NCBI GenBank assembly: GCA_943787625.1
Contig: CALSND010000004.1
Span: 4,401-68,400, forward strand
Source of the DNA: an uncultured Gammaproteobacteria bacterium
GTDB taxonomy: Bacteria > Pseudomonadota > Gammaproteobacteria > Ga0077536
Length of the DNA: 64,000 nt
Reading direction: 5' to 3'
Made by a program: the position numbers and the translations under genes. Numbering within the stretch: position 1 is the first letter of the stretch; the number at the start of each line of letters is the position of its first letter. The notes under the pieces are model-generated. The model made no database searches, was not told the origin of the DNA, and saw nothing but the letters and a program-made list of their open reading frames with translations. This document shows positions 17,962 to 36,283 of this stretch, piece by piece.

Positions 17962-19143
17962 CTAGTATGACCTAGGCAGACCTAGTTCTCTTTCTGCAAG
18001 GTAAGACAGGATCAGATTAGTTGAAATAGGTGCAATCTGGTAAAGCCGCGCCTCTCGAAACTTACGTTCGACATCGTATTCCTCCGCTACTGCAAAGCCT
18101 CCAAAGGTCTGCATGCAAGTGTCGGCAGCGGCCCATGAAGCCTCTGAAGTAAGAAGTTTTGCCATATTGGCATAGGTACCTGAGGTGTCTCCGGATTCAT
18201 ATAGGCGGCATGCCTTATCTAAAACAGCCTCCGCTGCTTCGGTTTGAGCGAACGCTCGTGCTATAGGAAATTGGATACCCTGATTGCGGCCAATAGGACG
18301 ACCGAAAACCTCTCGCTCACTAGCATAATCAGATGCCTTTTTAATAAACCAGCGCGCATCACCAACGCATTCGGCTGCAATAAGGATCCGTTCCGCGTTC
18401 ATTCCTGAAAGAATATACTTGAATCCTTTGCCTTCCTCTCCAATCAAGCTATCGGCAGGTATTGGCACATTATCGAAAAAAACTTCAGTGGTCGCATGGT
18501 TTAGCATTGTTCTAATTGGGTTGATGGTCATTCCATTTTTAAGAGCATCTCTCATATCAATAAGAAAGACTGAAAGGCCATCAGACTTCTTTTTCACTTC
18601 ATCTTTTGGTGTAGTCCGCGCAAGGAGTACCATTAAGTCTGAATGCTCGGCACGAGATGTCCAAATTTTTTGTCCATTGACGATATACTTATCGCCATCT
18701 TTAACAGCCATAGTAGTAATGCTGGTAGTGTCTGTACCAGCAGTCGGTTCGGTGACTCCGAATGCTTGTAGCCTTAAGTCTCCAGAAGCAATTTGTGGCA
18801 AATATTTCTTTTTTTGTTCTTCACTACCATGACGAAGGACCGTCCCCATTGTATACATCTGAGCGTGGCAAGCGGCAGCATTTCCTCCAAATTCATGGAT
18901 CGCTTTGAGTGTCTCAGAGCCGACAGTTATCGGCAGACCACTACCTCCATATTCTTCGGGTATTAAGGACGCCAGCAAGCCAAGCTCAGTAAGTCGTGTC
19001 ACAAACTCAGTCGGATATTTGCGTTCACGATCTTTTTCTCTCCAGTATTCTCCGGAAAACTCTTCACAGACTTTAAATACCGTATCTCGTATTTGGGATA
19101 TTGTTTCTTGTAGTTCTTCTTGGCTCATATTTAGGTAGCTCAC
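17962..19143 (-). CDS. acyl-CoA dehydrogenase
   Basis: 393 aa. VTEPTAGTDTTS motif, FGRPIGRNQGIQFPIA, and an ACAD-type C-terminal helix bundle. Confidence 0.9.
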   Translation of the reverse strand: MSYLNMSQEELQETISQIRDTVFKVCEEFSGEYWREKDRERKYPTEFVTRLTELGLLASLIPEEYGGSGLPITVGSETLKAIHEFGGNAAACHAQMYTMGTVLRHGSEEQKKKYLPQIASGDLRLQAFGVTEPTAGTDTTSITTMAVKDGDKYIVNGQKIWTSRAEHSDLMVLLARTTPKDEVKKKSDGLSVFLIDMRDALKNGMTINPIRTMLNHATTEVFFDNVPIPADSLIGEEGKGFKYILSGMNAERILIAAECVGDARWFIKKASDYASEREVFGRPIGRNQGIQFPIARAFAQTEAAEAVLDKACRLYESGDTSGTYANMAKLLTSEASWAAADTCMQTFGGFAVAEEYDVERKFREARLYQIAPISTNLILSYLAERELGLPRSY

Positions 19144-20769: not shown

Positions 20770-21312
20770 TTAATTGCTAATCTTTTTTTTTACCAGTGCG
20801 GACAAGTTATCTTTAGCTCGTTTTCGATTAAAGTCGACTTTGAACCGCGTCATCTCGATGGGCGTTATGTATTCGGTTGGGAACAAGTGATATCTCGCGC
20901 CGGCTAGAACAAGTTCTTTATACCAATCATATGGCTCTTGCTGGTAATCGACAAATGATTGTTGCGCCACATACACATTACACGCGCCGACACTGGGCAC
21001 ATGTATTACAGACGACCGATAGCCTTTGCCGACACCTTCAATCACGTCAAGCTGTTTGAGGTCTTTTATCGATATTTTATATACGGTGCCCCACACGGCG
21101 TCCTTATCACTTTTCACGATATTGCACTTGCCAGATCCGTCGCGGCCAATTTTAGAAAAATTAAGGCTCCAGCCGTGTAGCATCGCTGTAGTACTAAAAG
21201 CCGCTGAACTAATTCTTGCTTGAAGGCGAGCGGGATGCAAATTAGAGCCATAAGCTAGATAACGTATGACCCGCATATGGTTATTTGGCAGATTGTTATT
21301 AGACTTGCTCAT
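20770..21312 (-). CDS. gamma-glutamylcyclotransferase (AIG2/GGCT-like) family protein
   Basis: N-terminal YLAYGSNLHPARLQARI motif typical of the GGCT fold. 180 aa. Confidence 0.65.
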   Translation of the reverse strand: MSKSNNNLPNNHMRVIRYLAYGSNLHPARLQARISSAAFSTTAMLHGWSLNFSKIGRDGSGKCNIVKSDKDAVWGTVYKISIKDLKQLDVIEGVGKGYRSSVIHVPSVGACNVYVAQQSFVDYQQEPYDWYKELVLAGARYHLFPTEYITPIEMTRFKVDFNRKRAKDNLSALVKKKISN

Positions 21313-21387
21313 GATTTAGCCATGCTGAGTTTTTATATTTTAGTTGCTATTATAGGGCCTAGATTATTTTATAGACATGGAGCAGCA

Positions 21388-22554
21388 ATGAGCCAAAGTA
21401 TCGAACAGATCTCATCACAAGAGGAAACCCAAGTTATTGACGCTATTGACGTCTGGCTTAGGAAAGAGGTAGCTCACCAAGTAAAGCATTTCGATCACGA
21501 AGATGAATACCCACATGAAATAGTCGCTCAAATGAAAGATATGGGGCTGTTTAGTCTTATGTATCCAATAAAGTATGGGGGGTTAGGGTTCTCAGCCAGT
21601 TCTTACACCAAGGTGATAACAAAATTAAGCGAAACGTGGATGAGTCTGGCGGGCGTGATAAATACCCATATGATGTTGGGGCAACTCATTGAACGATTCG
21701 GTACCCCAGAGCAACAATCTTACTTTTTACCCCGGCTTACTAATGCTGAGTTACACGGTGCGTTGTGCTTGACTGAGCCCGATGCCGGCACGGATCTACA
21801 AGGGATTAAAACACATGCGAAGCGAGACGGTGATCGGTACGTTCTAAATGGATCTAAAATGTGGGTCACTAATGGGATGTATGGTTCTTTATACGCGGTG
21901 CTTACTAAGACGGATCCGAGTGCTCAACCAGCACACCGAGGGATGACGATGTTTTTAGCCGAAAAAGACACCGGCTTTAATGTAGACGGTAAGTTGAAGA
22001 AACTTGGTTATCGGGGCGTTGAGAGTGCGGCGCTAAGTTTTGATGACTATTCGATCTCTGCCGATCGGGTTCTTGGTGGGGTTGAGGGTAAAGGACTTCA
22101 GCATGCGATGGGAGGATTGGAATTGGGACGTATAAATGTGGCGGCTCGAGCTGTAGGCGTTGCGCGGGCTGCGATGGATGACGCGGTCAAATATGCGCAA
22201 GAAAGAGAGACTTTTGGCAAACCCATTTGTGAGCACCAGTCGATACAAATAAAGCTCGCGGATATGGCAACAAGAGTTGAAGCGTCTCGATTGTTAGTTG
22301 AACAGGCTGCGGACAAATATGATAAAGGAGAGCGCTGTGACATGGAGGCAGGTATGGCAAAATTATTCGCTTCTGAATCGGCGCTCGAAAATGCTACAGA
22401 GGCGATGCGAGTTCACGGAGGCTACGGTTATTCCAAAGAGTTTGACGTAGAACGGTATTATCGGGATGCGCCCCTTATGTGCATAGGCGAGGGAACAAAC
22501 GAGCTTCAACGGCTACTAATAGCTAAACAGCTGGTTAAACGATCTCCTATCTAG
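21388..22554 (+). CDS. acyl-CoA dehydrogenase
   Basis: ATG at 21388 with GGAG 5 nt upstream. LTEPDAGTDLQ and GGYGYSKEFDVERYYRDAPLMCIGEGTNELQRLLIAKQL, which includes the catalytic Glu context. Confidence 0.9.
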   Translation: MSQSIEQISSQEETQVIDAIDVWLRKEVAHQVKHFDHEDEYPHEIVAQMKDMGLFSLMYPIKYGGLGFSASSYTKVITKLSETWMSLAGVINTHMMLGQLIERFGTPEQQSYFLPRLTNAELHGALCLTEPDAGTDLQGIKTHAKRDGDRYVLNGSKMWVTNGMYGSLYAVLTKTDPSAQPAHRGMTMFLAEKDTGFNVDGKLKKLGYRGVESAALSFDDYSISADRVLGGVEGKGLQHAMGGLELGRINVAARAVGVARAAMDDAVKYAQERETFGKPICEHQSIQIKLADMATRVEASRLLVEQAADKYDKGERCDMEAGMAKLFASESALENATEAMRVHGGYGYSKEFDVERYYRDAPLMCIGEGTNELQRLLIAKQLVKRSPI

Positions 22555-22559
22555 CACTT

Positions 22560-22940
22560 TTAGCCATAAGCGATCGCCTCGATCTCAACCAGAGCCAAGG
22601 GGAGAGCTAATTGCGAGCATACTGTCGAGCGTGCTGGGGGCAGTTTTGGAAAGGCTGTTTGATACACTTCGTTAAACTCAGAGAAGTTGCTTAAATCAGT
22701 AAGCCAAATGGTTGTTTTTATTATGTTGGATATGTCGAGAGACGCCTCTTGAAGAATGTTAGCAATGTTTTTTATGCAGTGACTGGTTTGAGCTTTTATT
22801 CCACTCGGGATAGTTCCAGCATCGTCGAAACCAAGTTGACCTGACAGGAATACAAAGTCACCTGCTCTAACTGCCTTAGATAGTGGCAAAGGAGTTCCGT
22901 CGGCTAAAGTAAAATTACCACCAATGATTTCGTGTTTCAT
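22560..22940 (-). CDS. RidA/YjgF/L-PSP family reactive-intermediate deaminase
   Basis: About 126 aa starting at MKHEIIGG. GDFVFLSGQLG motif. The ATG overlaps the stop of the upstream membrane-protein gene (ATGA). Confidence 0.8.
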   Translation of the reverse strand: MKHEIIGGNFTLADGTPLPLSKAVRAGDFVFLSGQLGFDDAGTIPSGIKAQTSHCIKNIANILQEASLDISNIIKTTIWLTDLSNFSEFNEVYQTAFPKLPPARSTVCSQLALPLALVEIEAIAYG

Positions 22941-24031
22941 AGTTTTTGTTCCTTTTTGAGAAGTCTTTTTAAACCAATTGTTAGAAGTGGCAGCGTGAAT
23001 ATAGCCATGAAGCCCCAAGAAAGAGCTCCGTAGCCATTGGCAATGAGGTTAATGAGTCCAAACTGGGAAAGTAAAAGGCTCGCCATGGTTATGCTAAATG
23101 ATGAGAAGCTTCGAGCGCTATTAGATAGCCCGCAATTTCGAACCTCTCTGAGCCATGAGTCTATGCGATCATTTACTCCTTGAAGTACTCCGATTGCGGT
23201 AAGGAGGATAGTACCAATCAGGATGAAGAAATAGATGTGAACAGCAAAATGTATTCCAGACTGCTCCACTAAATGATACGTTGGTACTGGTAGTTGATTT
23301 ATCTCAGGGTAAAATCCGACAAAGCCAACATGGAGCAGCAGGGCGGGCAACACCCCAAAAAGTCCAGCTATTATCCCACTTTTGACTGCTTGGTCGCTAG
23401 TTTCAATTTCCGATGCTGCGTACATCAGTACAGGGATGAGCGCACTGTTGTATATAGCAAATCGCATGCCACTGATGGATGCTCCTAGCCAATCAATAGT
23501 ATCGGTGTTACTTAGTAACGCTAGATCTTTTATGGAGACCATCGAAACAATTAGTGATACTAGAAATCCCATTAGAAGAAGAGTCCAAATAGTGAGCGCG
23601 AACTTGACTATTGAGCGACCGAAATACGTAAAGCTTAATATCGCGAGTGAAAGGATAAGCCACACTTGGTAAATCCCGATACCATATGCAGTCTCTGCTA
23701 GTGTGGTCGTAGCGGAAGTGACAATTGCAAGCACTAGCACCAATAGCAAAACGAAGAGAACTTCGTAGATTATCCAAATTGGCCCTAAAAGCTCTTTTAA
23801 AAAATCCCGATAGTTGAAGACTTTAAACCTAACTGCGAACGCAAAGCTAGATGACAAAACCAAAACAAATATACCGGCAATGACTGCGATCGCTAACAAA
23901 CCTCCAGCAGGGCCAAATCGGGTCACATATTCGACTATTTCCCGACCAGTACCGTAGCCTCCGCCTATAATGACACTCTGGAAAATAGCGGCCGGGATGA
24001 TGTAAACCGCACAAAATTTACGCCAGTGCAT
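22937..24031 (-). CDS. polytopic membrane protein, about 10-11 TM, possible YkvI/permease-like transporter
   Basis: 364 aa and almost entirely hydrophobic helices. The N-terminal GGGYGTGREIVEYV resembles YkvI-type membrane proteins. The functional call is tentative. Confidence 0.5.
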   Translation of the reverse strand: MHWRKFCAVYIIPAAIFQSVIIGGGYGTGREIVEYVTRFGPAGGLLAIAVIAGIFVLVLSSSFAFAVRFKVFNYRDFLKELLGPIWIIYEVLFVLLLVLVLAIVTSATTTLAETAYGIGIYQVWLILSLAILSFTYFGRSIVKFALTIWTLLLMGFLVSLIVSMVSIKDLALLSNTDTIDWLGASISGMRFAIYNSALIPVLMYAASEIETSDQAVKSGIIAGLFGVLPALLLHVGFVGFYPEINQLPVPTYHLVEQSGIHFAVHIYFFILIGTILLTAIGVLQGVNDRIDSWLREVRNCGLSNSARSFSSFSITMASLLLSQFGLINLIANGYGALSWGFMAIFTLPLLTIGLKRLLKKEQKL

Positions 24032-24057
24032 TACCTAAGTCCTAAAATTGAAATAGT

Positions 24058-24876
24058 TTACTTACCTTTAAATTCTGGAGTACGCTTCTCAAAAAAAGCA
24101 TTGACCGCTTCCATATGGTCTTCAGTATGCTGCAACGTCACTTGCAAGGCGGCAGACATTTCCATAATTGAGTCAAAACTTGCCATTGTACCGTCTCGCA
24201 TCAGCTTTTTAGTCATCCTTAGTGCTTGAGGGGGTTGGACACAAATTTTTTCCGCCAAAGCTTCTGCCTCAGCTAAAACATCTTGATCGGGATACACTTC
24301 AGATACCAAACCCCAATCTTTAGCAGTATCGGCGTCAATTAGATCACCAGTGAAGAATAACTGAGCTGCTCTGGACCAGCCGATCTGCCGAGGCAGTAAC
24401 CAGGCGCCGCCATCACCGGGCAGTATGCCTAGCTTTAGAAAAGTCGCTCCAAACTTGGCTGATTTCGCAGCTAACCTGATATCGCAGAGGGAGGCGATGT
24501 CGCCACCCAGGCCTATTGCCGCCCCATTGATGGCACCAACAATAGGAACTTCGATATTCCACATTGCTTTTACGATTCCATGAATACTTTCGCGGTAATG
24601 GTCTCGCAGCTGGAGGGCATTGCCACCAAAGTGACCAGTTCTTTCTTTCATGGACTTTAAATCGCCACCAGCAGAGAAGGCTTTTCCCGCACCAGTCATA
24701 ATGACACATCTTAAATTCTTATTACTGTTTATAACATTAGCAGCTTCGGAGAAGCGTTCCCCATCACGCGCGTGCCCTAAAGGGTTTCTCGTGTCAGGTC
24801 TATTAATAGTTAGCCTGGCTATGACACCTTTAGTTTGAAGAATTAATTCATCGTCAATTGAGATTTCATTTTTCAT
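24058..24876 (-). CDS. enoyl-CoA hydratase/isomerase (crotonase family)
   Basis: GAGKAFSAGGDLK oxyanion-hole motif. 272 aa. Confidence 0.9.
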   Translation of the reverse strand: MKNEISIDDELILQTKGVIARLTINRPDTRNPLGHARDGERFSEAANVINSNKNLRCVIMTGAGKAFSAGGDLKSMKERTGHFGGNALQLRDHYRESIHGIVKAMWNIEVPIVGAINGAAIGLGGDIASLCDIRLAAKSAKFGATFLKLGILPGDGGAWLLPRQIGWSRAAQLFFTGDLIDADTAKDWGLVSEVYPDQDVLAEAEALAEKICVQPPQALRMTKKLMRDGTMASFDSIMEMSAALQVTLQHTEDHMEAVNAFFEKRTPEFKGK

Positions 24877-24891
24877 AATAAACTCCGTCTG

Positions 24892-25923
24892 TTAAGCCGT
24901 GATAATAGGCCAAATTTCGTTGCCGCCGTTTTCTACAGCGAGCTTACCTAGCTCTTCTCCCCAATACGCTACACCCCCATATTCTGTGCGCCAAGCCCAC
25001 ATCCTGCGAGTGAGGAAATGAAGCCCGTATTCGTATGTAAACCCAATGGCACCATGGATTTGATGACTTAAGCGGGTAATTTTTTCCACCGCCTCACTAG
25101 CTCGACATTTCGCGGCTGCTATTTCAAATCGCGCATTACGTTGGTTATCAGTTATTCCTGAGAGGTCCAACCGAGCACAAGCGGCAATTGCGATAGCATC
25201 AACTGATGCTACAAGGCCAGCTAAGTCTGCGAGGTGATGTTGGATTGCTTGGAATTTAGCCAACGATCTACCAAACTGCTCTCGGTCGCTGGCGTATGTT
25301 ACCGCGAGATCTAAAGCGGCAGCGCTGGCACCACCTATTTGGATACTTCGTACCAATGCGCCTAGGTATAGCAAAGAGTCGTTGTCTAGATTGGTCGGAA
25401 ATCTATCTAAAATTCTGGCTTCTCCTGAAATTCGATCCCGAGGGTCACGCCCCAAATTATTTTGATTTGCTACCTCTTGTTTTTGCGCTTCCAATATAAA
25501 AAGTTCCGAGTCATGAATCGCCATGTAGTAGCTACAGCGGCTTCCCCATGGGACAATACTTTTGTTCAGAGAAAACTTACTTTCTTTGATGGAAAACCCT
25601 TGAGTTAATAGGCCAGGAATTCCTTCGGGCAGTTCTGCCCCAGATTGTCGCGCAACCCATTGTCCCAAAATTGCTTCAGATACGGGGAGGGGAACGGTAT
25701 ATCTCCCACAAGCTCTTAGTACGGGGTATGCGTCACTCCAAGAGGCTTCAATACCACCTGAGGATTCACTGGCCAGGACCTTGTCAATTCCTTGCTCTAT
25801 TACTCTGCCCCAGAGTGACTCAGGCCATTCTATTTTTTCGTAGCGCGTGAGGGCATCCCAATCAAGTTCATCCTCAAATAACCTAGACACGCTCTCGTGC
25901 AGCATATTCTGTAATTCGTTCAT
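24892..25923 (-). CDS. short acyl-CoA-dehydrogenase-family protein (probable partner subunit of a heteromeric ACAD)
   Basis: 343 aa. ACAD C-terminal domain (FGRSLAKFQAIQHHLA; IGFTYEYGLHFLTRRMWAW). Its start overlaps the stop of the upstream ACAD gene by 4 nt. Confidence 0.75.
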   Translation of the reverse strand: MNELQNMLHESVSRLFEDELDWDALTRYEKIEWPESLWGRVIEQGIDKVLASESSGGIEASWSDAYPVLRACGRYTVPLPVSEAILGQWVARQSGAELPEGIPGLLTQGFSIKESKFSLNKSIVPWGSRCSYYMAIHDSELFILEAQKQEVANQNNLGRDPRDRISGEARILDRFPTNLDNDSLLYLGALVRSIQIGGASAAALDLAVTYASDREQFGRSLAKFQAIQHHLADLAGLVASVDAIAIAACARLDLSGITDNQRNARFEIAAAKCRASEAVEKITRLSHQIHGAIGFTYEYGLHFLTRRMWAWRTEYGGVAYWGEELGKLAVENGGNEIWPIITA

Positions 25924-27086
25924 CTGATCCCCATCCCTTTAGCGATTATTCCGCGCATTATTTCCGGTGTACCCCCTCTTAATGAAAAAGACGGAGCGAT
26001 TTGTATCAAGTTCCCAAGGATCTGTTGGTATGGCACCCCATGACCCTCAAGGGTTGGTTCTAGATCGCAGAGTTCTTGTGCTAGGCCTGGCAGGGTTTGC
26101 TCGAATTGACATCCTAGGTCTTTCACCACGGACGCGGCTAAAGTTGGATTCTCGCCCGCGTGTAGTTGTGAGGCAATGCTTAGAGACATTGTTCTAAGTG
26201 TCGTTGCCCACGCAACCTGAGTACCTATTTTTGCCAATATTGCCGGATTTGCGCAATCTTTTAATACGTCGATGAGTTCACGTAAAAGGTAGAAGCAGGA
26301 CAAGTATCGCTCTGGTCCGCTTCGTTCTAGCGCTAGTTCTTCGGTCACCTGCTTCCAGCCTTCCCCTTCAGTGCCTATCAAGGCATCGGCAGGGAGCTCT
26401 ACATCGACAAAGGATACTTCGTTGAAATTTTTTCCACCCGCAAGATTTTCTATCGTTCTGGGCGTTATACCTTTAGTTTTTTTCAGATCTATTAAAAATT
26501 GAGATAGTCCCGCATGCTTTTTATCTGGATCGGGATCGCTTCTGAATAGGGCTATCATATAGTCGGCGCGATGCGCCTGGCTGGTCCATATTTTAGTTCC
26601 GTTGACAAGCCAACCGTTTTCAGTTTTTTCCGCTTTGGTCCTAAGAGAAGCCAAATCGGAACCAGAATTAGGCTCACTCATCCCAATACAAAAGCACGCC
26701 TTCCCTGCTGTTATTTTAGGAATGATCTCTTTTTTTTGCGCCTCATTACCGTATCGAGTTAAAAGTGTTCCACTTTGTCTATCCGCAACCCAGTGAAAAC
26801 CTGTCGGCGCACCGGCTACCAAGCATTCCTCGACCACGACATAGCGCTCGAAGGCAGAGCAACCTTGTCCGCCATATTGTTTAGGGAGTGTCATGCCGAG
26901 CCATCCACGTTCACCGAGCTTGGCACTGAATTCTGCGTCATATGCTTCCCAACTATGACTACGTTTTACCACTGAATATTCTTGCAACTCGTCCGTTAAA
27001 AAAGCCCGAACTTCTTGCCGTAATACATGCAAATCAGCTGGTAATTGACAAGGATCAAACCTAAGTTTATCTGCAATAGACTCCAT
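25920..27086 (-). CDS. acyl-CoA dehydrogenase family protein
   Basis: 388 aa. MSEPNSGSDLAS motif, WTSQAH, and a C-terminal GGTPEIMRGIIAKGMG. Confidence 0.85.
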   Translation of the reverse strand: MESIADKLRFDPCQLPADLHVLRQEVRAFLTDELQEYSVVKRSHSWEAYDAEFSAKLGERGWLGMTLPKQYGGQGCSAFERYVVVEECLVAGAPTGFHWVADRQSGTLLTRYGNEAQKKEIIPKITAGKACFCIGMSEPNSGSDLASLRTKAEKTENGWLVNGTKIWTSQAHRADYMIALFRSDPDPDKKHAGLSQFLIDLKKTKGITPRTIENLAGGKNFNEVSFVDVELPADALIGTEGEGWKQVTEELALERSGPERYLSCFYLLRELIDVLKDCANPAILAKIGTQVAWATTLRTMSLSIASQLHAGENPTLAASVVKDLGCQFEQTLPGLAQELCDLEPTLEGHGVPYQQILGNLIQIAPSFSLRGGTPEIMRGIIAKGMGIR

Positions 27087-27143
27087 AATTAAACCTTATA
27101 TTTTTCAGTTAGTTGAAATATTAAAGTGATATTTAAGATTAAG

Positions 27144-28211
27144 TTATACTAATTGAGCATACTTCCATGCTTCTTCCGCAAATACCTCCACATACTCTGT
27201 TGAACGGTAAGCGTCAGCACTGGCGGCAGTACCATCTTCTACGCGTTTAACGATACCCTGATAGATAGCGGCGAGCCTCCACATAGTGTACGCCTTGTAA
27301 AATTCTAAGTTTTCAATTTCATTGCGATCAGTAAGTTTACAGTACATTGAAATGTATTCTTCTTCTGTAGGTATCCCCATCTCTGACAGATTGAGTCCGG
27401 ATAAACTTGAGATACCTTCCATGTTCGGAAGCATCCAAGGAGCAAGATGATAAACAAAATCCCCCAAAGGATGGCCTAACGTAGATAACTCCCAGTCGAG
27501 TACTGCTATCACTTTAGGTTCTGTTGGATGACATACCATATTGTCAAGTCTGTAGTCTCCGTGTATTACTGAAAGCTCTTGGGAGTCTGGGATGTTGTCG
27601 GGAAGCCATTTATTCAATTTGTCCATTAGAGGAATCTTTTTAGTTTCCGATGCTACATAAATTTTACTCCATCTATGAACTTGTCTTGCGATATAGTTTT
27701 CGGTCTTACCGAATCCATCAAGGCCAATCTCTGATGGATTTATTTTCTGCAGTCGCGCTAAAGTTTCCAACTTTGAGCGATAGATGTTTGTTCGTTCCGA
27801 TTTAGTCTGATCGGGTAATGATAGGTCCCAAAAGATCCTGCCATCGACCATTTCCATGACATAAAACATAGTCCCAATTACGTCCACATCTTCACAAAGC
27901 GCATATGCTTTCGGTATGGGGAAGTCGGTTTTTCCTAAGGCAGCGATAACACGATACTCTCTATCCACCGCGTGTGCTGACGGCATAAGAACACCTGGGG
28001 GTTTCCTTCTCAGTACATAGCGATTAGTTGGAGTAATGAGTTGGTACGTCGGGTTTGATTGACCACCTTTGAATTCTTTGACAGTCAATGGGCCGGAGAA
28101 ATCCGCCACATTTTCGTCCATCCAAGCACTAAGCTTAAGGTGATCGAACGACAAGTGTTGTTGTACCTCTTTCGTTCCAGAAAATTTGTGCTGCCTTTCA
28201 GTCATTATCAA
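27144..28211 (-). CDS. APH-type phosphotransferase (the kinase family associated with ACADs, as in the ACAD10/11 N-terminal domain)
   Basis: Catalytic loop HGDYRLDNM and VLDWELSTLGHPLGD. 355 aa. Confidence 0.8.
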   Translation of the reverse strand: MIMTERQHKFSGTKEVQQHLSFDHLKLSAWMDENVADFSGPLTVKEFKGGQSNPTYQLITPTNRYVLRRKPPGVLMPSAHAVDREYRVIAALGKTDFPIPKAYALCEDVDVIGTMFYVMEMVDGRIFWDLSLPDQTKSERTNIYRSKLETLARLQKINPSEIGLDGFGKTENYIARQVHRWSKIYVASETKKIPLMDKLNKWLPDNIPDSQELSVIHGDYRLDNMVCHPTEPKVIAVLDWELSTLGHPLGDFVYHLAPWMLPNMEGISSLSGLNLSEMGIPTEEEYISMYCKLTDRNEIENLEFYKAYTMWRLAAIYQGIVKRVEDGTAASADAYRSTEYVEVFAEEAWKYAQLV

Positions 28212-28228
28212 CCTTCCTATTGTATTAG

Positions 28229-29437
28229 TTACGCTACGATATTAGTGTCGTGTAGCTTTCCGATTGTCGCACTATCTAGGTTAAGCAATTCAGATAGTAT
28301 CTCGTCAGTGTGTTGACCCACGATTGGCGCTGGCTGAGGCGACTTCCTCTCTATTTCTGAAAAATGCATCGCACCGCTGGGCACAGGATATTTTCCGATG
28401 CCCGGCTGTTCAATAGTTTCAAATATAGGGTTGTCGTCGGAACAATCGGGATCTTCCTCTACCAATTTTTTTACGGATTGGTATTTATCCCAACAGATCC
28501 CGCATGCATCAAACATTTTCCCAACAACCTCTAGGGGATTTCTGCTGAACCATGGCTCAAGCAACCGAGACAATTCCACTCGACCTTCAAAACGCCCGCC
28601 TTCAGTGGAGAAGTCTAGTTGCATAAGATGCTCTAGCTGCGCCACCTCATCGCTGATTCCGGTCGCTTTAAGTAAACCGGCCCATTGTTTCGCATTTATC
28701 GCTATCAGCATTATTCGCTCGCCGTCGGACGTTTTGAAATCTCGACCAAGCGCGCCGTACAAGTAGTTACCATGTCGTTGTCGTTCGTGCTTGTTGACCA
28801 TGACCTCTCCAATGTAGCCCAGGTGTCCCATTGTACTTAGCGCTACATCAGCTAAAGCCAACTTAATTTGCTGACCTTTACCTGTTATTCTCCTGTGCCT
28901 CTCAGCTGCCAATATATCTATGGCTGCAAGGTAGGCTGTGGTGATGTCCCAAGCGGGTAGCACATGATTGACAGGCCGGTCGTCATCTGGATGACCAGTG
29001 AGATAAGGAAAGCCGACTTTTGCGTTTACCGTATAATCTAGTGCAGTACCGCCATGGCGATCTCCGACGATTTCGTGTTGTATCAGATCATTTCGTCTTT
29101 TTGACAACTCTTCGTATGAAAGCCAACCTCGCGCTGGTAAGTTGGTGGAGAAAATCCCTGCGTCGGATCCTTCAGCACAGATCAACTGACAGACAATTTC
29201 TTTTCCTTCGTCCGACTTTAAGTCTACTGCGATAGATCGCTTTCCTTTGTTCATCTCCGCCCAATATATACTCGTATTATCTTCAGTGACTGGCCAGCGA
29301 CGATAATCCATGCCGCCACCGATCTGATCAAATCTGATCACGTCGGCACCTAATTGCGCTAATGTCATTCCACACATTGGGGCTGCGATAAAAGCAGAAC
29401 CTTCAATTATCCGTAGACCTTTTAGTATTGGCTGCAT
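28229..29437 (-). CDS. family-III CoA-transferase
   Basis: LKGLRIIEGSAFIAAPMCGMTLAQLGADVIRFD. 402 aa. Confidence 0.85.
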   Translation of the reverse strand: MQPILKGLRIIEGSAFIAAPMCGMTLAQLGADVIRFDQIGGGMDYRRWPVTEDNTSIYWAEMNKGKRSIAVDLKSDEGKEIVCQLICAEGSDAGIFSTNLPARGWLSYEELSKRRNDLIQHEIVGDRHGGTALDYTVNAKVGFPYLTGHPDDDRPVNHVLPAWDITTAYLAAIDILAAERHRRITGKGQQIKLALADVALSTMGHLGYIGEVMVNKHERQRHGNYLYGALGRDFKTSDGERIMLIAINAKQWAGLLKATGISDEVAQLEHLMQLDFSTEGGRFEGRVELSRLLEPWFSRNPLEVVGKMFDACGICWDKYQSVKKLVEEDPDCSDDNPIFETIEQPGIGKYPVPSGAMHFSEIERKSPQPAPIVGQHTDEILSELLNLDSATIGKLHDTNIVA

Positions 29438-29464
29438 AGTATTTTGATACCTGTGAGTAAGTGT

Positions 29465-30319
29465 TTATTCTATGCCAGCGTTACCGTTATTCAGCACTAA
29501 TACATCTCTTTCTATAGACGATGCTCTAAACTGGATTTTAGAACCTTCGGACCATATCTCAGTGCGTAATGTTTCTCCCGGCATAAATGGCGCAGAAAAT
29601 CGCACACCCAATGACGTAAGCCTATGCGCTTGATAATTGCAACAACTTCGGATGAGTGCGTGCATGGCGACTCCTAACGTACAGCGACCATGTAAGATTG
29701 GCGCACTAAAGCCAACAGACGTTGCGACACTTGGATCGGCGTGTAGGGGATTCATGTCACCATTTAATCGGTATAGTAGCGCCGCTTGGGGAAGAGTAGG
29801 CAGATCGCAGACTATGTCGGGCTTTCGTTCCGGTGGAGCTGGCATAGCACTTCTTGGCTTGCTGTCTCCTCCGAACCCCCCATCACCTCGGGCTAACGTA
29901 TTAGATGTCACTGTTGCATAGTGCTTACTTTTATCTGCCGAATATAGGTCTTTCTTAGAATATACGAAGCATCCTTTGTCAGAACCTCGGTCAACAACAT
30001 CTTCTACCACCGTTTTGCCGTAGATCTTGCCTTCAATTGGCAGTGGGCAATGGATTTCGATAAATTCTTCAGCGTGCAGCACTTTTTGCCATTCGAAGCC
30101 ATAGCTTTTTTCTTTCATCCAGAAGCCTGGATAGTTTACAACCATTGCCATTCCTGGCAGCGATTGGCCACCATCTTCATAGACATAAGGCAATTGTCTG
30201 GAGTCCAGCGGATCACTCCCGAATCCAAGCGAGAGAGCATAAATTAGCGTGTCTTTGATGTCTACTTGAGTGACACTTTCGTGAATAGTTTTACCGATAA
30301 GGTCGGAATGATCTTTCAT
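29465..30319 (-). CDS. MaoC-type (R)-specific enoyl-CoA hydratase 2, double hot-dog (MFE-2 hydratase-like)
   Basis: Hydratase-2 motif YRLNGDMNPLHADPSVA. 284 aa. Confidence 0.8.
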   Translation of the reverse strand: MKDHSDLIGKTIHESVTQVDIKDTLIYALSLGFGSDPLDSRQLPYVYEDGGQSLPGMAMVVNYPGFWMKEKSYGFEWQKVLHAEEFIEIHCPLPIEGKIYGKTVVEDVVDRGSDKGCFVYSKKDLYSADKSKHYATVTSNTLARGDGGFGGDSKPRSAMPAPPERKPDIVCDLPTLPQAALLYRLNGDMNPLHADPSVATSVGFSAPILHGRCTLGVAMHALIRSCCNYQAHRLTSLGVRFSAPFMPGETLRTEIWSEGSKIQFRASSIERDVLVLNNGNAGIE

Positions 30320-30390
30320 GAGGATACCCTAAAATTATGGAGCCGAATGTCTCACCTATAGCTCTTCAGTTAAAATTTCTACTATTTTAT

Positions 30391-31302
30391 CTATACCGGA
30401 TCCCAAGGCCAGATATCTTGAGACCGTGCAAGGTCATAGAAGTCTGACTTGAGTGCAGGAGCGGCGTGCTCAGCAATAGTTTCTGGGGTCCAACCCTCAC
30501 CGCGGTGTATAGATCGAATAGGTCGATTTTGGCTCATGAGAAAAATTTCATTATTCCTCACTGCAAAAATTTGTCCCGAAACCTCATGGGCTTGATCGGA
30601 GAGCAGATATATTGCCATGGGGGCAATTTTATCTGGCGTCATTTCTTTCAGCCTCTCTACACGTTCCTTTTGGGCCTCGTCGGTGATGGGGATCGTGCCT
30701 ATCATCCGGGTCCAGGCGAAAGGGGCTATACAGTTACTCCGCACATTATAGCGCCCCATATCCAAGGCAATACTTTTTGAAAGAGCGACTATTCCTAGCT
30801 TGGCCGCTGCATAATTAGCCTGTCCAAAGTTCCCAATCAAGCCACTAGTCGAAGTCATGTGCACAAACGAACCAGTTTCTCGTTCCCGAAAATGATCTGC
30901 TGCCGCACGACTTACATAAAAGGTACCGTTTAAATGGACATCAATTACAGCCTGCCACTCATCTAAGCTCATTTTATGGAACATTCTGTCCCGTAAAATT
31001 CCCGCGTTATTAATTACGCAGTCCAGCTGACCAAAATTATTTATAGCGTCAGAAACCATAGCTTTTGCATCGTCATAGTTTGATACACTTCCGAAATTAG
31101 CAACAGCCTCGCCCCCTAGCGCAGTTATTTCCTTGACTACTTCTTGAGCAGGACGTCCCTCGATATCTTGTCCATCGGTGCTGGCGCCTAAATCGTTCAC
31201 TACTACCTTGGCTCCAGCTTGTGCCATCGCAAGAGAATAATCCCGACCAATTCCTCGTCCTCCACCTGTCACTAGGACTACCTTTCCAGCAAGCATATTC
31301 AT
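30391..31302 (-). CDS. SDR, MFE-2-type (3R)-hydroxyacyl-CoA dehydrogenase-like
   Basis: VLVTGGGRGIGR and YAAAKLG. About 300 aa with the C-terminal extension typical of MFE-2 dehydrogenase domains. Confidence 0.8.
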   Translation of the reverse strand: MNMLAGKVVLVTGGGRGIGRDYSLAMAQAGAKVVVNDLGASTDGQDIEGRPAQEVVKEITALGGEAVANFGSVSNYDDAKAMVSDAINNFGQLDCVINNAGILRDRMFHKMSLDEWQAVIDVHLNGTFYVSRAAADHFRERETGSFVHMTSTSGLIGNFGQANYAAAKLGIVALSKSIALDMGRYNVRSNCIAPFAWTRMIGTIPITDEAQKERVERLKEMTPDKIAPMAIYLLSDQAHEVSGQIFAVRNNEIFLMSQNRPIRSIHRGEGWTPETIAEHAAPALKSDFYDLARSQDIWPWDPV

Positions 31303-31511
31303 TCTGTTCTCCCGTAATATAGTTTAGCCCAAGGCTTAGGCCGTTAATTATCCCGCGTGCAAATCATATATGTTTTCAATACGTTCTAATAAGCCTTTTT
31401 AGTCTACGCGGCTTATAGTTTTTATCATCTGAGCCTATTTGGTATCATATCACTCCGATATCGTTATTCAATACAGTAACGGTCCGCGCGCATAATTGAA
31501 GGAGTTGATAG

Positions 31512-32282
31512 GTGGCGAACCCGATTTCAAGTTTACATATACAGGCTATAAAAGGTATTCCACTAATCCATGATGGCGATCAGTTGGACTCGATTATCCT
31601 GAGCGGTCTTAAATCAAATGGAGTCGAACTTGAAAGCGGGGACATCGTGGTTGTTGCGCAAAAAATAGTATCTAAAGCCGAAGGAAGGTTAGTTAGGCTG
31701 AGTGATGTAAATGCAGGGGAAGATGCCACGAAATTGGCGGAAGAAACTGAGAAGGACCCAAGACTGGTGCAACTCATTCTAAACGAGTCGACTGAGGTAG
31801 TGCGAAAAAAAGCCGGCGTACTAATAGTACGACATAATCTCGGACATATTGGGGCTAATGCTGGTATCGATCAATCAAATATCGAGAATGATGATGAATA
31901 CGCGCTTCTATTGCCCTCCGATCCTGATAGTTCTGCAGTGAAATTGAAATTTCAACTTGATTCTGCATTAGATGTTGACCTAGGGGTGTTAATTGTTGAC
32001 AGCCATAACAGACCCTGGAGGATGGGCACAATAGGTGGAGCAATCGGCTGTGCTGGATTTCAAGTGTTAGACGATCAAAGAGGCGGGGTCGATCTTTTTG
32101 ATAGAGAACTGAAAGTAACGCTTATAAACAGAGCTGATTCCATTGCGGCGTTAGCTACTTTAATAATGGGCGAAACCACAGAGATGACACCAGTCGCGAT
32201 AGTAAAAGGGTTCGCCAATGACGAACTCGATGGCAGAGCAAGTGAGATTAATCGTCCGAAAGAAGAAGATTTGTTCCAATAA
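31512..32282 (+). CDS. cofE: coenzyme F420-0:L-glutamate ligase (stand-alone CofE, no FbiB-type C-terminal domain)
   Basis: GTG start with AAGGAG upstream. CofE blocks VVVAQKIVSKAEGR, GANAGIDQSN, DSHNRPWR. 256 aa. Confidence 0.85.
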   Translation: MANPISSLHIQAIKGIPLIHDGDQLDSIILSGLKSNGVELESGDIVVVAQKIVSKAEGRLVRLSDVNAGEDATKLAEETEKDPRLVQLILNESTEVVRKKAGVLIVRHNLGHIGANAGIDQSNIENDDEYALLLPSDPDSSAVKLKFQLDSALDVDLGVLIVDSHNRPWRMGTIGGAIGCAGFQVLDDQRGGVDLFDRELKVTLINRADSIAALATLIMGETTEMTPVAIVKGFANDELDGRASEINRPKEEDLFQ

Positions 32283-32297
32283 ACTCTGGTAAACAGT

Positions 32298-33257
32298 ATG
32301 AAAAAATTTTTAGCAATTTCTGGTGGAGTCGGCGGAGCAAAACTTGGTCTGGGTTTAACAAAAATATTAAATGAGGACCAGTTGTCATTTCTAGTGAATA
32401 CTGGAGACGACTTTAAGCACGCCGGTGTCAATATTAGCCCAGATATTGATACGTTAATGTATACATTGTCAGGCTTAAACAATCAAGAACTGGGCTGGGG
32501 ACGGGCTGACGAATCTTGGGCTTTTTTGGACTCATTTAAAACTTTAGGAGGAGAATCGTGGTTCCAATTAGGTGACAGAGATCTTGCGGTACATCTGCGT
32601 AGAACTGAGTTACTTGATAGCGGACAATCACTTTCAGAGGTGACAGCTGAGCTTTTTAGTCGACTCGGGGTCAAGTATCGATGCTGGCCAATGAGTGAAA
32701 CTCAGGTATCCACAAAAGTCTATACTGATGATGGTTTGCTGAGCTTCCAACATTATTTTGTGCGTGATCATTGCGGGCACGAAGTCAAATCCATCATGTT
32801 TGATGGATTTGAACAGGCGCAGCCACCACAAGGCCTAATTGATTATTTTGACGACCCAGATTTGGCAGGAGTAATCATTTGCCCCTCTAATCCATATTTG
32901 AGTATTGATCCAATTCTGTCTGTTAAAAGTATCCGTAAAGCATTATCGAGTTGTGGCGCCCCAGTGATAGCGATATCTCCGATAATAAATGGCGAAGCTG
33001 TCAAAGGGCCAACTTCAAAAATTATGGCGGAACTTAAATTAGAACTCTCCGCCAAAACTGTCGCGCTGCACTACGACGGCCTAATCAATGGGTTTGTACT
33101 GGATACACTCGACCAGCAGATAGTTGGCGAAATTGAAGACACGGGATGTGCGGTTTTAGTTACGAACACTATGATGAATACACTAGACGAAAAGGCAGTT
33201 CTAGCGCAGACTGTTTTAGAATTTTGTGATAATTTGGGCGAATTGAAATGTGGGTAG
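32298..33257 (+). CDS. cofD: 2-phospho-L-lactate (or analogue) transferase
   Basis: ISGGVGGAKLGLGL, NTGDDFKHAGVNISPDIDTLMYTL, GWG..ESW, LGDRDLAVHL, CPSNPYLSIDPIL, SPIINGEAVKGP. These are all CofD/FbiA family hallmarks. Confidence 0.85.
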   Translation: MKKFLAISGGVGGAKLGLGLTKILNEDQLSFLVNTGDDFKHAGVNISPDIDTLMYTLSGLNNQELGWGRADESWAFLDSFKTLGGESWFQLGDRDLAVHLRRTELLDSGQSLSEVTAELFSRLGVKYRCWPMSETQVSTKVYTDDGLLSFQHYFVRDHCGHEVKSIMFDGFEQAQPPQGLIDYFDDPDLAGVIICPSNPYLSIDPILSVKSIRKALSSCGAPVIAISPIINGEAVKGPTSKIMAELKLELSAKTVALHYDGLINGFVLDTLDQQIVGEIEDTGCAVLVTNTMMNTLDEKAVLAQTVLEFCDNLGELKCG

Positions 33258-33949
33258 TTGTTCCCGTCAAACGATTTTATAACGCAAAAACCCGGCTAGC
33301 AAACATCCTATCCGACGCGGAGCGAGAATCACTTGCCCAAGTTATGCTTAATGATGTACTTTTGGCTATCTCTAATTCTCATTTGGTATCTGGCATTCTT
33401 GTAATCTCAACTGAAATCCGAGCACGCTACTCAGTGGAGAGGTTAGGAGGACTTTTTTTAGAAGAAAAGCAAGCCGGCTTGTCGGCTGCGGTCGCGCAGG
33501 CTGGGGGTTGGCTTTCTAAGCACGGTCAGCGTGGGCTAATGATGATTCCCGGTGATGTGCCACTGGTAAGAAGCGCGGATTTAGATCATATTATTCAAAG
33601 TCACGATAGTGAGTCAGGTCTAACCATCGTTCCAGATATTGAGCGAGATGGAACAAACGCGTTAGTGGTAAGTCCGGTAGATTTGATTGATTTTTCGTTC
33701 GGTCGGCAAAGTTTTGCAAAGCATTTGAAGGCATCCAAAAAGAAAGGGGTGTCAACAAAGATCCTCGAGTCTAGTGGGCTTTCGTTGGATGTGGATAACG
33801 TGATGGATCTTCAAATGCTATTATCGTTCGATAATGAAACAGAAACACTCGCGTATCTAGCGGATAGCGGTATAGCCAGGCGAGTCTTGCCAAGGTTAGA
33901 TAAGAATGCTGATAATGTGGGTATTGGTGCAGCATCCCGACTCATGTAG
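33248..33949 (+). CDS. cofC: phospho-C3-acid guanylyltransferase (CofC/FbiD type)
   Basis: VVPVKRFYNAKTRL N-terminus and ERDGTNALVVSP. It overlaps the cofD 3' end by 10 nt. 233 aa. Confidence 0.75.
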   Translation: MWVVVPVKRFYNAKTRLANILSDAERESLAQVMLNDVLLAISNSHLVSGILVISTEIRARYSVERLGGLFLEEKQAGLSAAVAQAGGWLSKHGQRGLMMIPGDVPLVRSADLDHIIQSHDSESGLTIVPDIERDGTNALVVSPVDLIDFSFGRQSFAKHLKASKKKGVSTKILESSGLSLDVDNVMDLQMLLSFDNETETLAYLADSGIARRVLPRLDKNADNVGIGAASRLM

Positions 33950-36283
33950 TTGAAAGTGGCGCAGTATGAAAAACAGGTTCTTTTAATGAAACATGAATAC
34001 ATAACACGTGAAGAAGCGTTAGCTTTATCTGATAGAGAAGACCTCGCAACACTTATGGCGCTTGCGGCTGATCTGAGAGATTCAGAGTTTGGAAACTGCG
34101 TCACTTACTCTCGAAAAATTTTCATCCCTTTGACTCAGTTGTGTCGAGACGTCTGTCACTACTGTACCTTCGCAAAGGCTCCAAAAAAATTGGGCAATGC
34201 TTACCTGCCACTTGATCAAGTTGTCGAGATCGCTGTTGAAGGTAAAGCGAGAGGCTGCAAAGAGGCGCTATTTACACTAGGCGAGAAGCCGGAACTTAGA
34301 TACAAAACTGCTAGGACTGCCTTGTCGAAAATGGGTTATGAGACGACCTTAGAGTACTTGCGTGATGCTGCTGATGCAGTCTTTCAAGAGACTGGTATAT
34401 TGCCTCACATGAATCCAGGAACATTGACTTCTGATGAATGCGCTATGCTCAGGAAAGTGTCGCCTAGCATGGGTATCATGCTGGAATCGGCAAGTGAGAG
34501 ATTATGTGAGAAGGGGATGCCTCATTTTGGATCTCCAGATAAGGCGCCAAAAGTTAGACTGGAAACGCTTCGAAACGCTGGTGTCGCCAAAATCCCGTTT
34601 ACTACCGGTATATTAATAGGTATTGGAGAAACTCGTCGGGAGCGTGTTGAATCCCTTTTGGCTATCCGAGACATACATATAGAATACGGTCATATACAAG
34701 AAATTATTGTACAAAATTTTAGAGCAAAGCCTGATACAAAAATGCACAACAACCCGGATCCTGATCTGGAAGAGATGCTCTGGACTCTAGCGATTGCCAG
34801 GATTATTTTTGGTTCGAAAATGAGTATACAAGCGCCGCCTAATCTGAGTCCTGATAGTTTGCCTCGTTTGGTAGAGGCTGGTATCAATGATTGGGGTGGG
34901 GTATCACCGTTAACTCCAGATCATGTAAATCCGGAGGCACCGTGGCCACACTTGGATAAATTATTTGACGACACAGCGGCTGTTGGAAAATTCCTGCACG
35001 AACGACTCACCATTTATCCCCACTATGTGAATAATTCTGGCGAATGGGTTGACGATCGGTTCGTCGCGCCACTGATGCAATGTACGGATTCCGAGGGTTA
35101 TCCTAGAACCGATGATTGGTCACCCGGTGATGAAGTAGAACCCCCTGAATCAATAATCAATTTGATTACCTCTCCCGTTCGGAAGGTTTCTAATGAAGTG
35201 TCGGTCATTTTAGACAAGGTAGTACAGCAGCAGTTACTAGACGACGAGGAAATCTCGAGATTATTTAAAGTTAGAGGTGACGACTTCAGCGCTGTGTGTC
35301 AATTAGCAAACCAACTTAGGGAAACAGCTAATAACGACGAGGTATCATTTGTTGTTAACAGAAACATAAATTATACAAACGTCTGTTATTTCAAATGCCA
35401 ATTTTGTGCTTTTTCAAAAGGCAAGTTGAGTGAAAACCTCAGAGGTAAACCTTATAATTTAGATCATGCAGAAATTCAAAGACGGGTAAAGGAGGCATGG
35501 GATCGAGGTGCGACCGAGGTCTGTATGCAAGGGGGTATACATCCTCAGTATACCGGAGAGACTTATGTCGAAATCCTGAAATCCGTGAAAACTATATCTC
35601 CTGATATGCATGTACACGCTTTTTCACCGCTCGAAGTCTGGCAAGGTGCGGCCACACTGGGTCTTGCATTAGAAGATTACCTACTTCGTTTAAAAGAGGC
35701 TGGTTTGAACACACTCCCGGGTACGGCTGGCGAAGTTTTAGATGATGAAGTCAGAGCAATTATCTGTGCCGATAAAATAAATACTGAAGAATGGTTGAGC
35801 GTGATGAGGGCGGCGCATCATGTCGGGTTTCAGACTACCGCTACTATCATGTATGGGCATGTCGATCGGGCGATCAATTGGGCTCGGCATCTAAGACGTG
35901 TTCGTGATTTGCAGATAGAGACGGGCGGTTTTACCGAATTTGTTCCACTGCCATTCGTTCACATGGAGGCGCCATTATACCTCAAAGGTAAAGCACGGAA
36001 GGGGCCTACTTTCCGAGAATCTATCTTAATGCATGCTGTTGCTCGAGTAGTGCTATATCCCTATATAAAGAATATTCAAACGTCATGGGTAAAGATGGGC
36101 CATTCTGGGGTAGTGGCTTGTCTTAATGCTGGCGCCAATGATCTCGGGGGCACATTAATGAATGAGAGTATTACCAGAGCTGCTGGCGCATCGTATGGTC
36201 AAGAAACATCTCCTGATGAAATGTTGTCTATGATTCGATCAGCAGGTAGAGTGCCTAGGCAGAGAAATACGGCTATACGGTGA
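33950..36283 (+). CDS. fbiC: FO (7,8-didemethyl-8-hydroxy-5-deazariboflavin) synthase, fused CofG/CofH
   Basis: Two radical-SAM cysteine triads, CRDVCHYCTF (N-terminal half) and CYFKCQFCAF (C-terminal half). About 770 aa. The start is uncertain (TTG 33950, GTG 33956 or ATG 33986). The 3' end may be truncated by a 1-nt insertion near 36267; the shifted frame reads ...RNTLYGDVSDERVRAG... to a stop at 36411-36413. Confidence 0.9.
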   Translation: MKVAQYEKQVLLMKHEYITREEALALSDREDLATLMALAADLRDSEFGNCVTYSRKIFIPLTQLCRDVCHYCTFAKAPKKLGNAYLPLDQVVEIAVEGKARGCKEALFTLGEKPELRYKTARTALSKMGYETTLEYLRDAADAVFQETGILPHMNPGTLTSDECAMLRKVSPSMGIMLESASERLCEKGMPHFGSPDKAPKVRLETLRNAGVAKIPFTTGILIGIGETRRERVESLLAIRDIHIEYGHIQEIIVQNFRAKPDTKMHNNPDPDLEEMLWTLAIARIIFGSKMSIQAPPNLSPDSLPRLVEAGINDWGGVSPLTPDHVNPEAPWPHLDKLFDDTAAVGKFLHERLTIYPHYVNNSGEWVDDRFVAPLMQCTDSEGYPRTDDWSPGDEVEPPESIINLITSPVRKVSNEVSVILDKVVQQQLLDDEEISRLFKVRGDDFSAVCQLANQLRETANNDEVSFVVNRNINYTNVCYFKCQFCAFSKGKLSENLRGKPYNLDHAEIQRRVKEAWDRGATEVCMQGGIHPQYTGETYVEILKSVKTISPDMHVHAFSPLEVWQGAATLGLALEDYLLRLKEAGLNTLPGTAGEVLDDEVRAIICADKINTEEWLSVMRAAHHVGFQTTATIMYGHVDRAINWARHLRRVRDLQIETGGFTEFVPLPFVHMEAPLYLKGKARKGPTFRESILMHAVARVVLYPYIKNIQTSWVKMGHSGVVACLNAGANDLGGTLMNESITRAAGASYGQETSPDEMLSMIRSAGRVPRQRNTAIR

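Follow-up and report, generated by a model that had tools for sequence, protein, structure and literature searches.

Is an acyl-CoA dehydrogenase (ACAD) that lies beside a kinase of the ACAD10/11 type also the partner of that kinase? This question is raised by nine genes at 22560-31302, minus strand, of the 64,000-nt stretch of DNA analysed here (the window), which represents positions 4401-68400 of contig C4 in a genome of 2.08 Mb and 19 contigs (G000, 92% complete) of an uncultured gammaproteobacterium. The nearest public records are metagenome-assembled genomes (MAGs) and one single-cell genome, labelled uncultured (Gamma)proteobacteria. Catabolism of 4-hydroxy acids by phosphorylation and subsequent elimination has been worked out only recently, in Pseudomonas and for mammalian ACAD10/11, and in bacteria the kinase is mostly found beside a special ACAD. 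In the lineage described here, the kinase appears to be parted from its ACAD and is embedded in a larger operon together with an Mct-like CoA-transferase, a two-subunit ACAD and both types of enoyl-CoA hydratase. We propose, at roughly even confidence, a composite operon for acyl-CoA catabolism that combines a 4-hydroxyacyl-CoA kinase bypass with beta-oxidation of both stereochemistries and an Mct-type CoA-transferase, and in which the kinase would be served by a partner encoded in trans.

The open reading frame (ORF) listing and the assignment of families by Pfam and NCBIfam bore out the nine minus-strand genes of the initial annotation and the families named there. In the direction of transcription, the genes are as follows.

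30391..31302, minus: short-chain dehydrogenase/reductase (SDR), 303 aa, similar to the dehydrogenase half of MFE-2, putative (3R)-hydroxyacyl-CoA dehydrogenase (Pfam adh_short 3e-44; solved relatives)
29465..30319, minus: hydratase-2, 284 aa, similar to the (R)-specific enoyl-CoA hydratase half of MFE-2 (Pfam MaoC_dehydratas and MFE-2_hydrat-2_N)
28229..29437, minus: family III CoA-transferase, 402 aa, nearest to the intramolecular mesaconyl-CoA C1-C4 transferase Mct (solved relatives, TIGR04253, residues)
27144..28205, minus: ACAD10/11-type kinase of the APH fold, 353 aa, putative 4-hydroxyacyl-CoA kinase (Pfam, solved relatives, HGDYRLDN and DWE)
25920..27086, minus: large (alpha) subunit of a two-subunit ACAD, 388 aa, with a Glu base in GPER as in isovaleryl-CoA dehydrogenase (IVD) and ChsE4 (solved relatives, NCBIfam, alignment)
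24892..25923, minus: small (beta) subunit of the ACAD pair, 343 aa, Tyr at the base position (Pfam, NCBIfam, alignment)
24058..24876, minus: crotonase-family enoyl-CoA hydratase, 272 aa (ECH_1 2e-53; NCBIfam PRK09245 366 bits, cut-off 354)
22937..24031, minus: YkvI-family membrane protein, 364 aa, about 10-11 transmembrane spans, putative APC-type permease (atlas clusters, hydropathy)
22560..22940, minus: RidA (Rid family), 126 aa (Ribonuc_L-PSP 6e-29; TIGR00004 97 bits, under the cut-off of 106)

The Kinase

Comparison with proteins of solved structure placed the kinase next to 3DXP from Cupriavidus (376 bits) and the kinase domain of mouse ACAD11 (8V3V, 265 bits). It is 43-51% identical to the ACAD10/11 kinase domains of many animals, and likewise to bacterial fused forms, which upholds the family originally suggested for it. 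The Pfam APH model matches at 8e-50, and the motifs HGDYRLDN (residue 215) and DWE (residue 237) align with D220/N225 of ACAD11; the NCBIfam models for aminoglycoside APH(3') and thiamine kinases reach only about 24 bits. The Arg of YIARQV aligns with R175 of the 8V3V chain, equivalent to the residue reported to contact CoA, R176 of ACAD11, and the Arg of the DRE motif, beside the alpha-C Glu, is conserved as well. The gene is present in a single copy in the genome. By these features it encodes a genuine member of the ACAD10/11 family and a putative 4-hydroxyacyl-CoA kinase, for which 4-hydroxyacyl-CoA is a likely, not a unique, substrate. A stand-alone kinase and ACAD of this type from Burkholderia pseudomallei have replaced both domains of ACAD10 on 4-hydroxyhexanoyl-CoA (PMC11342911).

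Members of the kinase family also occur fused to ACAD10-type ACAD domains. Among metagenomic proteins (P0002, P0005-P0007, P0010, P0018, P0081), the kinase domain was in addition found fused to crotonase, SDR, nitronate-monooxygenase-like, acyl-CoA-synthetase, patatin and histidine-phosphatase domains.

The Neighbouring ACAD Pair

Phosphate-eliminating ACADs are defined by a catalytic Asp (D753 of ACAD11), an HCMR motif (H634, R637) and an upstream Arg (R626) (PMC12440821). Alignment with the ACAD domains of ACAD10/11 demonstrated that the position of the catalytic Asp is occupied by Gly (SLRGGT) in the large and by Tyr in the small subunit of the pair, and that the HCMR position of the large subunit reads SCFY. 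Like isovaleryl-CoA dehydrogenase and ChsE4, the large subunit instead carries a Glu immediately ahead of a conserved Arg (GPER); the small subunit has no base. An Arg of the large subunit (in LER) does align with R626, and it is likewise invariant in orthologues lacking a nearby kinase.

Consistent with the active-site residues, the solved relatives are two-subunit dehydrogenases: 4X28_A (ChsE4, 145 bits) and 6WY8_B/6WY9_A are the best for the large subunit, and those of the small subunit include 6WY8_A and 4X28_D. The nearest NCBIfam model is pimC_large for the large subunit (176 bits, cut-off 624); for the small subunit IpdE2 and pimD_small are nearest, both far under their cut-offs. Pfam recognises strongly only the C-terminal domain of the small subunit, which has no recognisable middle domain. 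The pair thus resembles the two-subunit (alpha2beta2) enzymes ChsE4-ChsE5 (4X28), Tcur3481-Tcur3483 of Thermomonospora curvata (6WY8/6WY9), the small subunit of which matches IpdE2, and PimC-PimD in its adjacent, overlapping genes, in a Glu base confined to the large subunit and in a small subunit without a recognisable middle domain. It differs from these enzymes in its low similarity to ChsE4 and pimC_large, and for this reason we assign it to a separate, uncharacterised ACAD subfamily marked by ERSGPER and SLRGGT.

This subfamily is widespread. Orthologues of the pair with 41-54% identity were found in Sphingomonadales, Burkholderiales, Hydrocarboniphaga, Stellaceae, a Dormibacterota MAG, Nocardia and Brevibacterium, and both motifs are invariant in all orthologues compared. 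The loci examined outside the clade of the window's genome contain neither an Mct-like transferase nor an adjacent kinase; at one locus, in Brevibacterium, a kinase and ACAD10-type cluster lies 3-6 kb away. The crotonase accompanies the pair within the clade, and weaker neighbours of the ECH family (26-46% identity) do so at many loci outside it. In Parerythrobacter, the pair has a housekeeping-like neighbourhood that gives no hint to the substrate. Because the kinase-less orthologues share the invariant active-site motifs, the pair is, as judged from its sequence, an ordinary dehydrogenase that is not adapted to the kinase. The phosphate-eliminating function previously ascribed to it, which lacks support from the catalytic Asp, from HCMR and from the nearest relatives, is not sustained.

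Proposed ACAD10/11-Type Partners Elsewhere in the Genome

A search of the whole genome with the ACAD domains of ACAD10/11 detected two ACADs of this type, at C3:14837-16051 and C5:131118-132284, which are 53-56% identical to these domains. Both carry GRLGPGRIHHCMR (the R...HHCMR motif), and a genome-wide motif search found HCMR in these two proteins exclusively. The catalytic Asp is also present in the alignment (LADGPDE in C3, QADGPDQ in C5). Since the kinase is encoded on contig C4, it is neither fused nor adjacent to them. Both ACAD genes stand isolated among unrelated genes, one by an MMPL transporter and SurE, the other by a DMFA-like cluster and a hexapeptide transferase.

Among 41 relatives, the kinase and the ACAD10/11-type ACAD occur in exactly the same 24. 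In an even set of 401 Pseudomonadota genomes, the kinase was detected in 121 and the ACAD in 139; the latter is present in 118 of the 121 kinase-positive compared to 21 of the 280 kinase-negative genomes, the overlap having been counted by eye from two tables. In other families of Pseudomonadota, the two are direct neighbours at 11 of the 29 best kinase loci. Within the family, the relatives compared have them either on separate contigs or at a distance of 185-247 kb; in one genome (G008) the distance is no more than about 12 kb. We infer from these distributions that the phosphate-eliminating partner of the kinase is provided in trans by one of the two ACADs on C3 and C5.

Two further ACADs of the window were considered as partners and rejected. 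Among solved structures, both the 425-aa ACAD at 21277-22554, convergent to the operon and FadE3-like (436 bits to 4IV6), and the 393-aa ACAD at 17962-19143 have their closest matches in ordinary ACADs, FadE3 (4IV6) and 5LNX being examples, and neither contains HCMR.

The system shares with ACAD10/11 (PMC12440821; PDB 8V3U, 8V3V) and with the split B. pseudomallei pair (PMC11342911) the kinase family, at the identity to the animal proteins given above and with its motifs kept, as well as the presence in the genome of two ACADs with R...HHCMR and the catalytic Asp. It differs in that the kinase lies between an Mct-like transferase and a two-subunit ACAD. The lva operon of P. putida (lvaABCDE; Rand et al. 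2017, per PMC12440821 and PMC11342911), which encodes a kinase (lvaA), a small partner (lvaB), an ACAD (lvaC), an SDR (lvaD) and a ligase (lvaE), is similar in combining an SDR, a kinase and an ACAD-family enzyme acting on CoA esters of 4-oxo and 4-hydroxy acids. Unlike lva, the present cluster has neither an LvaC-type ACAD nor an LvaE-type ligase (LvaB was not searched for), and its SDR is of the MFE-2 type. Between LvaA and the kinase domain of ACAD10, identity reaches only about 29% (PMC11342911), and the operon kinase is much closer to ACAD10/11 than LvaA is.

The CoA-Transferase and the Split MFE-2

The initial annotation had treated the CoA-transferase as a plain activator of the substrate. 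Its nearest solved relatives are the intramolecular enzyme Mct of Chloroflexus (8APQ, 504 bits) and the corresponding enzyme of Roseiflexus (7XKG, 495 bits), the next one following at 119 bits, and the residues for carboxylate binding are kept, so that a simple activating role no longer describes it well. In Mct, Asp165 is catalytic, Arg47 and Tyr136 bind the free carboxylate, Leu/Ile43 narrows the mouth, and R75, F101 and R104 form the CoA 'cork' (PMC9813914). D164, R47 and Y135 of the operon transferase align with Asp165, Arg47 and Tyr136, and the equivalents of Asn100 and Arg104 are also retained. At the mouth and cork, the residues are similar in character and not identical: Leu43 is replaced by Met43, Arg75 by Lys74 and Phe101 by Leu100, and Arg104 corresponds to Arg103. 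The two enzymes are thus alike over their full length and in their key residues. They differ at these three positions and in the score against the equivalog model, and the operon enzyme belongs to a catabolic operon of a heterotroph and not to a CO2-fixation cycle.

Because the catalytic Asp and the Arg/Tyr pair for a free carboxylate are conserved, the transferase would be expected to handle a dicarboxylic acyl-CoA, shifting CoA between the carboxyls or loading CoA. A further hint comes from related loci, 20 of 32 of which contain a 570-aa ACAD between the SDR and hydratase-2 genes (e.g., L038:3825-5537 in G019); this protein scores 560 bits against (2S)-methylsuccinyl-CoA dehydrogenase 8CIW. 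The Mct-like transferase, the methylsuccinyl-CoA-dehydrogenase-like gene of the relatives and the similarity of the ACAD pair to pimeloyl-CoA dehydrogenase together point to dicarboxylic, perhaps branched, acyl-CoAs as substrates. Routes for branched C5-dicarboxylates are known (PMC12290011), and in anaerobic naphthalene degradation the intramolecular CoA-transferase ThnP repositions CoA on a dicarboxyl-CoA for the ACAD ThnO (PMC11659651). The likeness to ThnP/ThnO is one of logic, and we claim no homology: ThnP is a family I transferase and ThnO a homotetramer.

In the whole genome of 2.08 Mb, the family III CoA-transferase model gave 23 matches, at least 13 of them full-length, with stop codons or splits interrupting several (C8:1232-2336, C6:26097-27156, C7:96614-97672).

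The SDR has its best solved relatives in the (3R)-hydroxyacyl-CoA dehydrogenase parts of yeast, human, rat and fly MFE-2 (2ET6, 1ZBQ, 1GZ6, 3OML), and hydratase-2 in the MFE-2 hydratases 3KHP, 1S9C, 7MKU and 3OML. With the MFE-2 hydratase-2 N domain also present in the latter protein, the two genes represent a split MFE-2, as had been suggested. Their products match best the two catalytic parts of the peroxisomal multifunctional enzyme type 2 (D-bifunctional protein), which differs in that here two separate genes are present and no SCP-2 domain occurs.

Organization and Conservation of the Operon

The intergenic distances from SDR to RidA are 71, 27, 23, 57, -4, 15, 26 and -4 nt, as expected from the short gaps and 4-nt overlaps described before. 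One of the two overlaps joins the genes for the small and large ACAD subunits. In the other, RidA starts with ATG at 22940, which overlaps the YkvI stop codon as ATGA and yields a protein of 126 aa, not 152. The kinase most likely starts with ATG at 28205, 6 nt after a GGAAGG site, rather than with TTG at 28211. The membrane protein at 22937-24031 gave no family in a Pfam search; its nearest clusters are YkvI-family membrane proteins (atlas score 0.98), and hydropathy analysis revealed about 10-11 hydrophobic spans.

Of 24 genomes sampled from the same family, 22 encode an orthologue of the kinase (58-97% identity). The gene order that runs from SDR through hydratase-2, CoA-transferase, kinase, large ACAD and small ACAD to crotonase is shared by at least 14 genera of this family. 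Synteny was analysed for 48 species-level loci of the clade, 46 of them with informative upstream sequence, and in 45 of these 46 the kinase adjoins the large ACAD. This arrangement is not due to chance. YkvI and RidA are directly attached in this genus and in some others; elsewhere unrelated genes on the opposite strand intervene, and those between crotonase and YkvI encode an epimerase and an enolase-superfamily protein. Since the attachment of YkvI-RidA varies among the relatives, we regard seven genes as the conserved unit (nine in this genome).

Two variations were observed among the relatives. At L044 (G013), the SDR, hydratase, transferase, kinase and crotonase genes are kept and no ACAD pair is found between kinase and crotonase. 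Larger genomes of the family contain a second kinase paralogue (about 35% identical; L048-L051 of G009, G014, G023 and G012), which has neither operon gene types nor an ACAD10-type ACAD within 10 kb.

Two features adjoin the operon at its upstream end.

31303..31511, no strand: intergenic region common to the operon and the divergent cofE, with a promoter-like site inside (consensus match)
31512..36283, plus: F420 biosynthesis genes cofE, cofD, cofC and fbiC (Pfam families)

The promoter-like site for the operon, at 31471-31444, consists of TTGAAT, a spacer of 16 nt and TATGAT with a TG element, and is a match to the consensus only. In the scan for promoters and terminators, counts were at or below chance, the shared region having fewer sites than its shuffled versions, and among the scanned sites this one alone is well placed. 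Contigs from four metatranscriptomic libraries (three studies) map on the operon at 95-100% identity and bridge five of the eight junctions, namely kinase/transferase, transferase/hydratase, hydratase/SDR, small/large ACAD and YkvI/crotonase. As carry-over of DNA is possible, these contigs demonstrate presence in RNA libraries and not a transcript. The gaps, the conserved order and the bridging contigs are consistent with the genes forming one packed and conserved unit that may be co-transcribed.

Proposed Pathway and Alternative Explanations

Gene families, motifs, synteny and co-occurrence suggest the following sequence of activities. An acyl-CoA, presumably dicarboxylic and supplied or rearranged by the Mct-like transferase, would be oxidised by the two-subunit ACAD, with the Glu base in the large subunit, to the 2-enoyl-CoA in an ordinary dehydrogenation. 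The S-specific crotonase, the R-specific hydratase-2 and the (3R)-hydroxyacyl-CoA dehydrogenase may then hydrate, epimerise and oxidise this intermediate. A substrate bearing a hydroxyl at C4 would be phosphorylated by the ACAD10/11-type kinase; the unlinked C3 or C5 ACAD, not the neighbouring pair, would remove the phosphate and return a 2-enoyl-CoA to the cycle. The thiolase or lyase step would be encoded outside the operon, and the putative permease YkvI and RidA are probably variable add-ons.

Several observations weigh against this proposal. The Pfam and NCBIfam searches identified no thiolase, lyase or ligase among the nine genes, and the partner of the kinase is assigned from co-occurrence, not from linkage, related genomes not being independent samples. 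The CoA-transferase reaches 532 bits against TIGR04253 (2-methylfumaryl-CoA isomerase), below the equivalog cut-off of 725, and, with Met in place of the mouth-closing Leu43 and Leu in place of Phe101, it may be an ordinary intermolecular enzyme. A (2S)-methylsuccinyl-CoA-dehydrogenase-like gene was not found in the 92% complete genome of the window. The clade kinases have gained no basic residue away from the N-terminus that would hint at a carboxylated substrate. The contigs from the RNA libraries cover the flanks of the operon in the same way, and one of them bridges the convergent ACAD/RidA pair. Finally, ACAD10 and some prokaryotic ACAD10-type kinases are reported to phosphorylate 1-O-alkylglycerols in vitro (bioRxiv 10.1101/2025.09.10.675409), and for this reason the substrate assignment of the kinase is not unique.

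The arrangement of the genes might be explained by an Lva-like module in cis, in which the adjacent pair eliminates phosphate from the 4-phosphoacyl-CoA. The kinase gene directly upstream of the large ACAD subunit at 45 of 46 loci and the Arg aligned with R626 of ACAD11 would fit this model. We consider it quite improbable, as the pair has an IVD-type Glu base instead of the catalytic Asp and HCMR, the Arg and its flanking motifs are just as invariant in orthologues without a nearby kinase, G013 keeps the operon kinase without an adjoining pair, and the genome does encode genuine ACADs of the ACAD10/11 type, a type whose distribution across genomes follows that of the kinase. Less improbable, and still unlikely, is a mere juxtaposition of independent modules without one common substrate (CoA-transferase and kinase; ACAD pair and crotonase; split MFE-2; YkvI and RidA) that were packed together by streamlining. 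In many lineages the ACAD pair does occur alone, often with an ECH-family neighbour and once in a housekeeping-like context, the attachment of YkvI-RidA is variable, and the genome measures only 2.08 Mb. Against this, non-streamlined relatives with genomes of 3-5.7 Mb, across the genera mentioned above, have the same order from SDR to crotonase, and the short gaps with two 4-nt overlaps likewise speak for one unit.

The activity on 1-O-alkylglycerols leads to another view, namely that the kinase phosphorylates a lipid alcohol, with CoA esters acting only as activators; prokaryotic homologues are reported to phosphorylate chimyl alcohol, some of them with stimulation by acetyl-CoA (same preprint). 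This seems very unlikely for the operon kinase: all seven conserved neighbours are enzymes of CoA esters, 118 of the 121 genomes with the kinase family also encode the ACAD10/11-type ACAD, and the residue aligned with R176, which contacts CoA in ACAD11, is an Arg here too. The proposed composite operon could be specified further if the kinase acted on a hydroxylated dicarboxylic acyl-CoA such as 2-(hydroxymethyl)succinyl-CoA or 2-hydroxyglutaryl-5-CoA, both of which are 4-hydroxyacyl-CoAs if numbered from the thioester end. Their phosphorylation, followed by elimination, would lead to enoyl-CoAs of the mesaconyl or glutaconyl type, which might be processed further by the Mct-like transferase and, in the relatives, also by the methylsuccinyl-CoA-dehydrogenase-like enzyme. 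We offer this as a speculative extension that is rather unlikely to hold as it stands; clade and canonical kinases differ consistently at only 11 positions. If true, it would add a new substrate class to the kinase family and represent an aerobic, ATP-driven removal of the hydroxyl group from such acids, by an operon that is kept beside F420 biosynthesis.

The proposed composite operon would provide a concrete enzyme set through which abundant uncultured aquatic bacteria may degrade hydroxylated acids, probably dicarboxylic or branched ones. The findings also call for caution in annotation by neighbourhood, as an ACAD beside an ACAD10/11-type kinase need not be its partner.

Neighbouring Genes

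Downstream, the convergent 425-aa ACAD gene (21277-22554) stops only 5 nt from the RidA stop, and no terminator-like hairpin was predicted between the two. About 2.7 kb past the right end of the window, at C4:71115-71793 of G000, a gene of the HpcH/HpaI type (citryl/malyl-CoA-lyase-like) is seemingly split over two frames. At the upstream end of the operon, cofE-cofD-(cofC)-fbiC is located divergently in all 32 clade loci that reach that far. In the complete 5.7-Mb genome of G023, a luciferase-like gene (L039:4903-5802) lies between cofE and the SDR gene in the direction of the operon; its product is possibly F420-dependent and may link the operon to F420.

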